From Candidatus Moranbacteria bacterium CG10_big_fil_rev_8_21_14_0_10_35_21 (GTDB lineage: Bacteria; Patescibacteriota; Minisyncoccia; Moranbacterales; UBA2206): a stretch of 53,991 nt of DNA. A model generated the notes under the pieces. The model made no database searches. It was not told where the DNA came from and saw nothing but the letters and a program-made list of their open reading frames with translations. Of the stretch, positions 19,561-29,735 are shown one piece after another. The position numbers and the translations under genes were made by a program. Every line of letters starts with the position of its first letter. Positions within the stretch are counted from its first letter, which is position 1. The stretch spans positions 1-53,991 of the forward strand of contig PFCG01000029.1 in NCBI GenBank assembly GCA_002773095.1, written 5' to 3'.

Positions 19561-19649
19561 TGTCATCCTGAACTTGATTCAGGATCTAATTACAAAACTA
19601 GTGATTACACTAAAACTCTATTAGATTCCGGATCAAGTCCGGAATGACA
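19561..19649. mobile_element. non-autonomous (empty) copy of the GIY-YIG-associated hairpin repeat element
   Basis: TGTCATCCTGAACTTGATTCAGGATCT ... AGATTCCGGATCAAGTCCGGAATGACA; left arm is 26/27 identical to the repeat at 28411. Confidence 0.75.
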
Positions 19650-27424: not shown

Positions 27425-28396
27425 AAATTTGGATTTATTTATAAAATTATAAAATTAAAAATTATAAAATTTGGAGTCTTTTTTATATTAATAGTCTTAG
27501 TTGGCTACGTCTTTTTTTATTTATTTACCCATTCCGGCCGAAATTTATCCTTCGCTGTTCCCAAAACTGTTTCTCTTGATGACAATGGACTGTCTTTCCG
27601 AAAAAATACTTCTGCGGAGACAATTGAAGAATTTTTGCAAGAAAATAAATTAAACATTAGCGACTACGATCAAATCATTCCGGCCAGAGAAACGCCGATT
27701 TTTCCGGAAATAAATATTGAAATCCGCCGAGCTTTGAAAATAAAAATATCCGCCGACAAACAAGAAAAAGAATTCTACACTTTGTCCGACACTGTCGGCA
27801 ATGCTCTTGCTGAAAGCCAAACGAAACTGGGCGAAGATGATTTGATTGATCCGAAAATTTCCTCGCCATTGAAAAATAATTTGAAAATTACTGTTACACG
27901 TGTGGAAATCAGAGAAGAAACCGTGCAAAAATCCATTGATTTCAAAACAATTGCCAAAGAAGATGATTCATTGGGCTGGCGAATAAAAAAGATAACCACT
28001 CCCGGAAAAAAAGGGACGGAAGAAATAAAATATAAAGTGGTTTCACACGATGGCAAAGAAATTTCCCGAAAAATATTGAATAGAAAAACTGTTCAAAATC
28101 CAACTGATGAAATCGTGGTGCAAGGAACTTATATGAAAACCGGAAAAGCCAACACCGGACAAGGAACGTGGTATGCTTGGAAAGGAGGACTCTTTGCCGC
28201 CAGCGCTACTCTTCCGAGGGGAAGTTATGCTAAGGTTACCAATATGGAAAACGGCAAAACAGTCGTGGTGCAAATCAACGACTATGGCCCCCAAGGCAAA
28301 GGGCGTATTATTGACTTGGACAAAGTGGCCTTCACCAAAATCTCCAACATCGGCGCGGGAGTAATTGGAGTGAAAGTTGAACAGATACTTAATTGA
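27425..28396 (+). CDS. membrane-anchored ubiquitin-like (DUF348) + G5 + RlpA/DPBB domain protein
   Basis: G5 (TPGKKG..K..Y..V..DGKEISR..PTDEIVVQGT) and RlpA-like (AAS.TLP.GS..KVTN..NGK.V.V.INDYGP..GRIIDL); frame open from 27425 with a TM helix, but the first canonical start is TTG at 27635. Confidence 0.8.
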   Translation, partial: KFGFIYKIIKLKIIKFGVFFILIVLVGYVFFYLFTHSGRNLSFAVPKTVSLDDNGLSFRKNTSAETIEEFLQENKLNISDYDQIIPARETPIFPEINIEIRRALKIKISADKQEKEFYTLSDTVGNALAESQTKLGEDDLIDPKISSPLKNNLKITVTRVEIREETVQKSIDFKTIAKEDDSLGWRIKKITTPGKKGTEEIKYKVVSHDGKEISRKILNRKTVQNPTDEIVVQGTYMKTGKANTGQGTWYAWKGGLFAASATLPRGSYAKVTNMENGKTVVVQINDYGPQGKGRIIDLDKVAFTKISNIGAGVIGVKVEQILN

Positions 28397-28410
28397 CAAA
28401 ATAACTATTT

Positions 28411-28758
28411 TGTCATCCTGAACTTGTTTCAGGATCTCAAAAACATGAAACAATATTGCGTTTACATCAACACAAATAAAAATAATACAACTCTTTATAT
28501 CGGGGTGACTAATAATTTACCAAGGAGAATGTATGAGCATAAAAATAAAATAACTAAGGGTTTTACAGCAAAATATAATGTTAATAAATTAGTATACTTT
28601 GAGCAAACTGAAAATATATTGAGCGCCATTCAAAGGGAAAAACAGCTAAAAAATTGGCATAGGGAATGGAAAATAAATCTTATTAATAGTATTAATCCAA
28701 AATTGGAAGATCTAAATAAATCTTTATTAGAAGATCCTGAAACAAGTTCAGGATGACA
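28411..28758. mobile_element. GIY-YIG cassette bounded by perfect 27-bp inverted repeats
   Basis: TGTCATCCTGAACTTGTTTCAGGATCT (28411-28437) and exact reverse complement (28732-28758). Confidence 0.8.
28445..28756 (+). CDS. small GIY-YIG nuclease (UPF0213-like)
   Basis: YCVYI..TLYIGVTNNL.RRMYEHK..FTAKY..LVYFE..AIQREKQLKNW.REWK; stop codon lies inside the right repeat. Confidence 0.92.
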   Translation: MKQYCVYINTNKNNTTLYIGVTNNLPRRMYEHKNKITKGFTAKYNVNKLVYFEQTENILSAIQREKQLKNWHREWKINLINSINPKLEDLNKSLLEDPETSSG

Positions 28759-28763
28759 TTATT

Positions 28764-29606
28764 ATGAAACATATACCCAAAAAAAATCTTGGTCAAAATT
28801 TTCTCAAAACCAATTCTATCGTGAAAAGGATTATTGAGTCTGCCAATTTAAGCGCGGATGATTTTGTCATTGAAGTTGGGCCCGGGGAAGGAGTTTTGAC
28901 AGAGGAGCTTGCAAAAAAGGCGGGAAAAGTTTTGGCGATTGAAATTGACCATACGCTCATCAAACCGCTTCAAAAAAAATTTGAGAATAAAAAAAATGTT
29001 GAAATAATCAACGCCGACATACTAAAAATAAATCTTCCGGAGCTACTTGGACACGAAATGTCCAAGTATAAAGTAATTGCGAATTTGCCTTACTATATTA
29101 CTTCGCCGATTATCCGACTGTTTTTGGAAACCGAAACTCCGCCTCAAGAAATGATTTTGATGGTGCAAAAAGAAGTGGCGGAAAGGATTGTGGCTTCACC
29201 CAGTGAAATTCCGGCTGAAAGCCGGAGCGCGAAGCGCATTTCACGGGGTAAGCCCGGGCAAATGAGCATCCTGGCTGTTTCGGTGCAATACTATGCCAAA
29301 CCGGAAATTCTTTTTGAAGTGGGCAAAGAAAATTTTGATCCGATTCCGGAAGTGGATAGCGCGGTCATCAAAATTACAAATTCCGAATGCGGAATTCCGA
29401 ATGCGGAAACAAAAAAATTTTTTCGCGTGGTCAAGGCGGGATTTTCCGCGAAAAGAAAAACTTTGATCAATAATTTATCAAGCAGTTTGCATTTGGAAAA
29501 GAAGGCTGTGGAAGAAAAAATAAAAGCCGTCGGTTTGAAGCCGACGGCTAGAGCTCAGGAGCTGAGCGTAGATGATTGGGAAAAAATTACAGTTTTACTT
29601 ATTTGA
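28764..29606 (+). CDS. rsmA: 16S rRNA dimethyltransferase RsmA/KsgA
   Basis: KKNLGQNFL, EVGPGEG.LT, ANLPYYITSP, MVQKEVAER, P.PEVDSA. Confidence 0.96.
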   Translation: MKHIPKKNLGQNFLKTNSIVKRIIESANLSADDFVIEVGPGEGVLTEELAKKAGKVLAIEIDHTLIKPLQKKFENKKNVEIINADILKINLPELLGHEMSKYKVIANLPYYITSPIIRLFLETETPPQEMILMVQKEVAERIVASPSEIPAESRSAKRISRGKPGQMSILAVSVQYYAKPEILFEVGKENFDPIPEVDSAVIKITNSECGIPNAETKKFFRVVKAGFSAKRKTLINNLSSSLHLEKKAVEEKIKAVGLKPTARAQELSVDDWEKITVLLI

Positions 29607-29735
29607 TTCTTCATCTGGTTGCATATCTTCTCCGTAATAATTATTTATTGGAGCATATGTGCATTTGAAGCAACACCCACTCATAAAAGAAATAATTGAA
29701 AAAACTACAACAGCTATCAGTAATACTTTTTTCAT
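29595..29735 (-). CDS. small putative lipoprotein (46 aa; not in the ORF track)
   Basis: MKKVLLIAVVVFSIISFMSG-C lipobox-like signal; GGAGG RBS. Confidence 0.55.
   Translation of the reverse strand: MKKVLLIAVVVFSIISFMSGCCFKCTYAPINNYYGEDMQPDEESNK

Follow-up and report, generated by a model that had tools for sequence, protein, structure and literature searches.

A GIY-YIG nuclease gene between TGTC-tagged hairpins in a Moranbacteria genome is a probable Ssn-type cassette

Hairpin repeats paired with a small GIY-YIG nuclease were described by Chenal et al. (Nat Commun 2025; PMC11893778): SsnA is a 94-aa single-domain GIY-YIG protein (CDD cd10448) whose gene adjoins hairpins, named NTS at this gene and SRM more generally. 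According to the main text of that article, at least one SRM lies near 71% of Ssn homologues, and 42% are flanked on both sides. Purified SsnA proteins of four species bound the hairpin only as single-stranded DNA (ssDNA) and cut it a few bases upstream, on one strand only, with cutting depending most on the three bases before the palindrome and binding most on the C after it. Here we describe a 348-nt cassette, a 103-aa GIY-YIG gene between two hairpin arms, at positions 28411-28758 of a 53,991-nt stretch of DNA (the window, i.e., the whole stretch analysed) from Candidatus Moranbacteria bacterium CG10_big_fil_rev_8_21_14_0_10_35_21 (contig PFCG01000029.1). Judging from the sequence, this is probably an Ssn-type cassette, in which the nuclease gene is bracketed, tags outward, by hairpins of the kind that such nucleases recognise; the assignment rests on size, domain, hairpin flanks and the link provided by a homologous locus, L122 (see below), with SsnA compared by its published description only.

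The hairpins themselves have a second precedent. Di Nocera, De Gregorio and Rocco (BMC Genomics 2013; PMC3733652) defined CGTC-tagged repetitive extragenic palindromes (REPs), whose tag is often TGTC and which are described there as having 8-9 bp stems starting with AT, loops of 4-5 nt and the tail consensus CCA. Most copies form inverted dimers, which are often heterodimers, and intragenic copies also occur; Neisseria dRS3 and Rickettsia RPE-4 and RPE-6 belong to this class, five phyla are listed, and the class is apparently without a dedicated (tyrosine) transposase (PMC3733652). A literature search on GIY-YIG nucleases together with tagged hairpin repeats returned no paper beyond these two. 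The name of the first author of the 2013 paper does not occur in the main text or the reference list of the 2025 article, and Patescibacteria are not named in its main text (the supplements lay outside this search). An initial annotation of our locus, made from the sequence alone, had cautioned that such systems might already be catalogued, and the caution was justified by both publications. The hairpin described here is a TGTC-tagged member of the CGTC-REP/SRM class, and the nuclease-hairpin pairing is of a known kind, published in 2013 and 2025, of which the cassette is a further example.

The source genome (G000; below, genomes, contigs and loci carry G, C and L numbers) comprises 753 kb in 32 contigs, has 35% GC and is 94.85% complete. 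The window is its contig C20, and near-identical DNA is present in groundwater and aquifer metagenomes. The cassette and its surroundings contain the following features:

28411..28758, + strand: whole cassette (left arm, 7-nt spacer, GIY-YIG gene, right arm), 348 nt, between G5 and rsmA
28411..28437, + strand: left arm; TGTC tag, AT plus 6-bp stem, CTTGT loop, stem, ATCT
28732..28758, - strand: right arm; 27 nt identical to the left arm on the - strand, tag outward
28445..28756, + strand: GIY-YIG nuclease gene, Ssn-like, 103 aa, single-domain (PF01541)
27635..28396, + strand: G5/DUF348/DPBB (lytic transglycosylase-like) gene, upstream neighbour, outside the element (Pfam)
28764..29606, + strand: rsmA (16S rRNA adenine dimethylase), downstream neighbour, outside the element (PF00398, RrnaAD, E=7e-61)

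In a repeat search, the arms at 28411-28437 and 28732-28758 formed an inverted repeat of 27 nt, 100% complementary and 294 nt apart; together with the PF01541 match (E=1e-17), this bears out the initial view of a perfect 27-nt inverted repeat around a 103-aa GIY-YIG gene. Read from the outside inward, each arm consists of TGTC, AT, a 6-base stem half, CTTGT, the complementary half, AT and CT; ATCCTGAA-5 nt-TTCAGGAT is present in both, and TGTC faces outward. Folded as ssDNA, either arm gives an 8-bp hairpin (-6.1 to -9.6 kcal/mol; z -4.0 to -4.8 against shuffles, with -4.4 for the left arm and -4.0 for the right), which agrees with the TGTC-tailed hairpin claimed for each repeat. Three occurrences of the stem pattern were counted in the window, where 0.05 were expected; 0 of 100 shuffles reached that number.

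The open reading frame (ORF) is intact and runs from the ATG at 28445 to the TGA at 28754-28756, co-oriented with its neighbours within an operon. The domain match covers the full PF01541 profile (1-78 of 78) over protein residues 3-78, with no second domain, and the GIY and YIG motifs as well as the conserved Arg and Glu are kept. The right arm encodes the last eight residues and the stop of the gene, in ..GGATGACA, the TGA being part of the reverse complement of the GTCAT tag. The stop codon had thus been placed correctly within the right repeat; a small correction concerns the start, which sits at 28445, 7 bases from the left arm. The ATG of rsmA lies 5 nt downstream of the right arm. The cassette is, as had been noted, AT-richer than its neighbours: GC content is 0.27 over 28400-28799, compared with 0.352 genome-wide and 0.39-0.47 in 300-nt windows taken inside the neighbouring genes.

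The nuclease belongs to a large family, with at least 7975 related protein clusters at E<=1e-10 and a best non-self identity of 77%; the closest homologous loci come from Patescibacteria-type metagenome-assembled genomes (MAGs). A sequence search of PDB gave no useful relative (best GIY-YIG match SLX1, E=0.28), and in NCBIfam nothing scored above cut-off (TIGR01453, 20.6 bits against a 56-bit cut-off). We compared 80 homologous loci with 54-74% identity from Patescibacteria, Bdellovibrionales, Ignavibacteria, Cloacimonadota, Melainabacteria-like bacteria, Nitrospirota and other MAGs. A GTC-tagged hairpin stood either in the 90 nt preceding the start codon or over the stop codon in 58 of the 80 loci, and at both ends in 34; hairpin density was 4.37 per kb up to 100 nt from the gene, as compared with 0.57 per kb in the remainder of the ±2 kb flanks. 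Circularity was avoided by choosing sites on the tag only (GTCAY-N17-RTC). Among 117 unique sites chosen in this way, the inner stems were fully paired in 50, whereas 500 rounds of arm shuffling yielded 4.7 on average and 11 at most; 19 distinct, compensating stems were represented. It is the hairpin structure, rather than its sequence, that is conserved, and the co-varying flanking repeats proposed earlier as a check across taxa were found: hairpins at the gene ends with compensatory changes in their stems.

In an alignment of 79 hairpins, the G, T and C of the tag were invariant and the C after the stem (C28) was at least 90% conserved; these are the positions critical for SsnA cutting and binding (PMC11893778). 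The hairpins on both flanks of L122, whose nuclease is 64% identical, match the Neisseria NTS consensus except for the first base, and CCA tails stand beside some homologues, such as L119 and L122. Within the source genome, a paralogue at C18:34366-34644 (65% identical) is bracketed, tags outward, by different, longer hairpins. Among relatives, a homologue at E<=1e-10 was present in 14 of 40; hairpins were found in 13 of these 14 (median 15) and in 15 of the 26 relatives without a homologue (median 1.5), counts that are not independent of each other because of kinship.

Two further arrangements were seen. Beside homologous genes at L066:359-393 and L101:2294-2328, single hairpins are tagged on both sides (TGTCAT-stem-loop-stem-ATGACA) and are fully palindromic and non-oriented. 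In two relatives, at G016:C14:18935-21672 and G001:C38:68581-71078, two Ssn-type genes each lie on the same strand, ~2.2-2.5 kb apart.

The likeness to the Ssn system extends to several traits: a single-domain GIY-YIG protein (~94-105 aa in the family, 103 aa here) and oriented hairpins on both sides of its gene, with an HGTC tag, an AT-initiated stem and a C after the stem, repeated genome-wide. Unlike SRM, the stems here are AT-richer (CCTGAA and similar) with a 5-nt CTTGT loop, and the family comprises ~17 strong copies, not hundreds. Many copies stand in frame inside genes here, as against 2% of NTS within genes in the meningococcus (PMC11893778), and the host is a member of Patescibacteria (CPR), unlike the hosts named in the main text of the Ssn article.

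With the CGTC REPs, the hairpins share the TGTC tag, the stem of AT plus 6 bp, the 5-nt loop, the preference for inverted dimers (often heterodimers), the presence of some copies in genes and the lack of a detected tyrosine transposase. They differ in the tail, which is CT(N) and not CCA, and in the phylum, which is outside the five listed (PMC3733652). A further difference from the 2013 account is that here, as in the 2025 article, a GIY-YIG gene is a candidate dedicated enzyme. The REP/REPIN systems with RAYT transposases are similar in their short tagged hairpins, inverted doublets and single-copy gene flanked by its own repeats and, by analogy, in an enzyme that would recognise the hairpin in ssDNA; here, however, the tag is GTC/TGTC instead of GTAG, and the enzyme is a hydrolytic GIY-YIG nuclease instead of an HUH Y1 transposase. 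The Y1/RAYT transposase family PF01797 gave no match in the genome (94.85% complete); the control search was positive in 6 of 14 named genomes. This supports the earlier analogy, in which a GIY-YIG enzyme is tied to a TGTC-tailed hairpin family as RAYTs are to REPs. The GIY-YIG homing endonucleases (I-TevI, I-BmoI, T4 Seg proteins) share the catalytic domain and a selfish strategy, whereby DNA cleavage close to the gene favours copying of that gene; unlike the bare 103-aa domain found here, they have a separate DNA-binding domain and cut duplex DNA, while the Ssn relatives of our protein cut ssDNA only (PMC11893778).

Hairpins of this type recur throughout the genome, as the initial annotation had asked to be counted. 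A pattern scan (GTCAT, 6-7 bp stem, loop, complementary stem, AT) gave 21 genome matches, against a mean of 3.4 and a maximum of 9 in 30 simulated genomes. A covariance model, R1, built from the 79 aligned hairpins gave 17 matches of at least 32 bits, with T before GTC in 17 of 17; the left arm of the cassette scored 49.7 bits, the best in the genome, and the right arm 45.7 bits on the - strand. The copies are mostly gene-less inverted pairs, tags outward, usually with two different stems and with 8-39 nt between hairpin cores; eight tag-outward pairs lie on C1, C11, C17, C18, C20 (two), C25 and C32. A gene-less pair of the same family also lies in the window:

19561..19649, no strand assigned: gene-less hairpin pair; tags outward, stems CCTGAA / TCCGGA, R1 48.9 and 46.8 bits

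Its arms are 35 nt apart (19588-19622). The cassette is such an inverted hairpin pair with a gene in the middle. Tails after the stem are CTA, CTC, CTT or CTG in this genome, and the flanks of the eight pairs have in common only T...A beside the tags.

When 18 hairpins were placed relative to ORFs, seven turned out to interrupt the coding sequence of real genes, all in frame. The hosts include an isoleucyl-type tRNA synthetase (IleRS; inserted peptide CHPELVSGSQEMLKQVQHD), a Mur ligase at two sites and a radical-SAM gene. The IleRS insert is missing in 22 of 23 relatives' orthologues, the remaining one (G034) having a different tagged insert in the same loop. At Mur site 1, nothing is inserted in 21 of 23 orthologues and one has an unrelated insert; G002 carries a full pair where the source genome has a single hairpin. 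Other in-frame inserts occur in the same surface loops in the Mur ligases L179 (G011), L177 (G006) and L193 (G015) and in the IleRS L142 (G034). They are low-complexity or palindrome-derived, with peptides such as ...NFQFPISNFQ...ISNDK... and ...PLEKGVLPTGGEGF..., and suggest that, in essential genes of this lineage, loops tolerant of insertion are colonised by several repeat families.

The site of the cassette is conserved in relatives. We found rsmA in 41 of 41 genomes searched, the source genome included, and a G5 homologue upstream of it in the same orientation at 24 of 29 relatives' loci; the G5-rsmA gap measured 4-231 nt in 23 of these 24 and 1.3 kb in one. None of the 29 loci had a GIY-YIG match, which is the empty site that the initial annotation had suggested looking for, and Pfam matches of both neighbours support the location it gave between a G5-domain gene and rsmA. 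Excising 28411-28758 in silico leaves a 19-nt spacer, typical for the relatives. The cassette is an insertion at the G5-rsmA junction, acquired after the split from the relatives examined. Gene-less tag-outward pairs of other stem types lie at the same junction in L028 (G026) and L023 (G016), with a degenerate one in L030; the presence of such pairs in two relatives fits a gene entering a pre-existing pair by recombination.

Contigs from four metagenome runs were also compared with positions 27700-29500. In runs X4 and X5, contigs cover the passage from G5 to the left arm and that from the left arm across the gene to rsmA, without differences, confirming the linkage of the cassette to both neighbours. 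Contig "skips" of ~290-300 nt were considered as excision products and rejected: their sides measure only 18-28 nt, and those whose intervening letters were listed contain 10-38 foreign letters. Given the short sides and the foreign letters between them, they are hairpin pairs of other loci or organisms. The summed word depth of the contigs peaks at the arms (4925 against ~6 in run X4), which shows only that many contigs of the community carry the hairpin. The metagenome contigs support present-day mobility neither way.

Hairpin-specific cutting of ssDNA has been demonstrated by others for homologues (PMC11893778), and an analogous activity may be expected of the 103-aa protein. By analogy with the purified SsnA homologues, it would bind the folded hairpin only in ssDNA and would recognise the GTC immediately before the stem and the C immediately after it. 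The cut is predicted a few bases 5' of the tag, i.e., at about 28405-28410 on the + strand and about 28759-28764 on the - strand. A promoter scan found promoter-like sites in the cassette to be no commoner than in shuffles; since there is no evident promoter of its own and the left arm ends 7 nt before the ATG, the gene is probably expressed by read-through from G5.

As to how the cassette may spread, we tentatively prefer a homing-like route over true transposition, with odds that we put at about one in three. Cleavage by the nuclease at ssDNA hairpins would be followed by recombinational repair from another copy bounded by hairpins. We favour this route because GIY-YIG enzymes cut DNA by hydrolysis, because the two tags lie on opposite strands and because gene-less pairs occupy the junction in two relatives.

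Several observations weigh against the reading as an Ssn-type cassette and its spread. The published SRM string, HGTCWYN(0-2)YYVSBRHN(0-5)WNVSBRGN(0-2)RNCYNB, had no matches in the genome, both arms included, because the stems are too AT-rich for its S and V positions; among the 80 homologous loci it matched within 100 nt of the gene in only seven. Six of the 26 relatives without a close homologue have 10-55 hairpins (e.g., 55 in G017 and 35 in G019), and at E<=0.001 five of the six (G017, G019, G020, G028 and G037) gave only distant GIY-YIG matches of 29-39% identity, which means that hairpins can persist, or spread, without the gene. Conversely, G016 has two homologues and no R1 matches, its hairpins being of another type. 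For the in-frame inserts, neither a target-site duplication nor an exact unit length could be defined, because the host loops are variable among orthologues. Finally, no contig in the four metagenome runs joins G5 to rsmA without the cassette, though contigs cannot show absence.

Alternatively, the nuclease may be a domesticated host function that restricts or shapes the integration of incoming hairpin-bearing ssDNA, as proposed for Neisseria, with the hairpins beside the gene serving regulation or protection and not marking the ends of an element. In N. meningitidis, SsnA lowers transformation by NTS-flanked DNA (PMC11893778), and the intact gene described here, with its GIY and YIG motifs, Arg and Glu kept and its orientation that of the operon, would suit such a role. 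A conserved host function would, however, hardly be confined to 14 of 40 relatives, mostly in different places, and this gene is inserted at its site and AT-richer than its surroundings. The share of mapped hairpins that interrupt coding sequence (7 of 18) is also unlike the 2% of meningococcal NTS in genes (PMC11893778), and on balance we rate domestication as slightly less probable than homing-like spread.

It is less likely still that the cassette is an autonomous transposon resembling an insertion sequence (IS), with the nuclease as its transposase and the gene-less pairs as MITE-like derivatives, excised and reinserted via single-stranded intermediates much as IS200/IS605 elements and RAYTs with REPs are. 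The Discussion of the 2025 article likens NTS-ssnA-NTS to an insertion sequence, possibly a domesticated element (PMC11893778). In our data, too, the inverted repeats bound the cassette exactly, and it is missing from the site in the 29 relatives' loci. Its homologues stand in unrelated contexts: G5 or rsmA occurs within 2 kb of the gene in 0 of the 80 loci, and flanks were similar in 4 of 300 pairs among 25 relatives' loci, two of the four being overlapping loci of one genome. In-frame units in IleRS, the Mur ligase and the radical-SAM gene, missing from most orthologues, would also be expected of a transposon. Against this, hydrolysis by a GIY-YIG enzyme forms no covalent intermediate, and we know of no joining activity in such nucleases. 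The tags lie on opposite strands, so that a cut 5' of each would be expected to fall on a different strand, whereas both ends of IS200/IS605 are on one strand; neither a target duplication nor a fixed target was observed, and some hairpin-rich genomes lack a close homologue.

That the hairpins are ordinary terminators or attenuators of the neighbouring genes, incidentally paired around the GIY-YIG gene, is highly improbable and was rejected: they have stable stems and lie in intergenic spacers of an operon, but no T-run follows either arm, a terminator scan listed neither, an Rfam search at E<=1 over 27500-29700 returned no family for them (its sole match being weak, irrelevant and inside rsmA), the same tagged hairpins stand in frame inside genes, and they recur at homologous gene ends in 58 of 80 loci across phyla.

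The Ssn-type cassette also invites a wider and rather speculative reading, which we consider no more probable than domestication: the cassette may be self-propagating, Ssn-type nucleases may be the missing enzyme that spreads the whole CGTC/TGTC REP superfamily, including Neisseria dRS3 and the Rickettsia palindromic elements, and the gene-less pairs may be non-autonomous derivatives able to enter essential genes in frame.

While the nuclease-hairpin pairing was known, the comparative case bears on its role outside Neisseria and on whether cassettes move. It adds a clean insertion of a whole cassette at a junction conserved in relatives and frequent in-frame hairpins in essential genes (IleRS, Mur ligase) of a CPR-type genome. 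It also adds an AT-rich hairpin subfamily that the published string misses. Because members of this subfamily often accompany close homologues in Patescibacteria and other uncultured phyla, the published figures probably understate the association. In addition, it makes an explicit link between the "transposase-less" CGTC REPs of 2013 and the Ssn nucleases of 2025, which the main text and reference list of the latter article do not draw by citation. Each new pair of nuclease and hairpin is also of biotechnological interest, as a candidate ssDNA cutter with a specificity of its own.

A repeat of a type unlike the TGTC hairpins lies within the downstream neighbour. At 29203-29248, rsmA contains an in-frame composite palindrome (TGAAAT, two GC-rich hairpins, ATTTCA), which encodes about IPAESRSAKRIS and folds at -21 kcal/mol (z -5.2). 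The RsmA matches of several relatives are split or gapped close to the corresponding residues.

The genome also contains a second group of small GIY-YIG genes. Twelve such genes were counted in all, ten of which are of a shorter type (~70-115 aa) that is only distantly like the Ssn type. Five of the ten overlap, or end within 35 nt of, a same-strand tRNA gene (Lys, Ser, Val, Asn, Asp); the loci are C19:13752-13988, C12:23374-23616, C17:97-351, C13:4845-5090 and C15:152-409 (also C24:1760-2014). Immediately before the C12 gene, 30 nt duplicate the 5' half of the tRNA-Ser that follows it, and a similar duplicate was seen by eye at the C24 gene, beside a masked stretch. These shorter genes may represent a tRNA-targeting, homing-type family.

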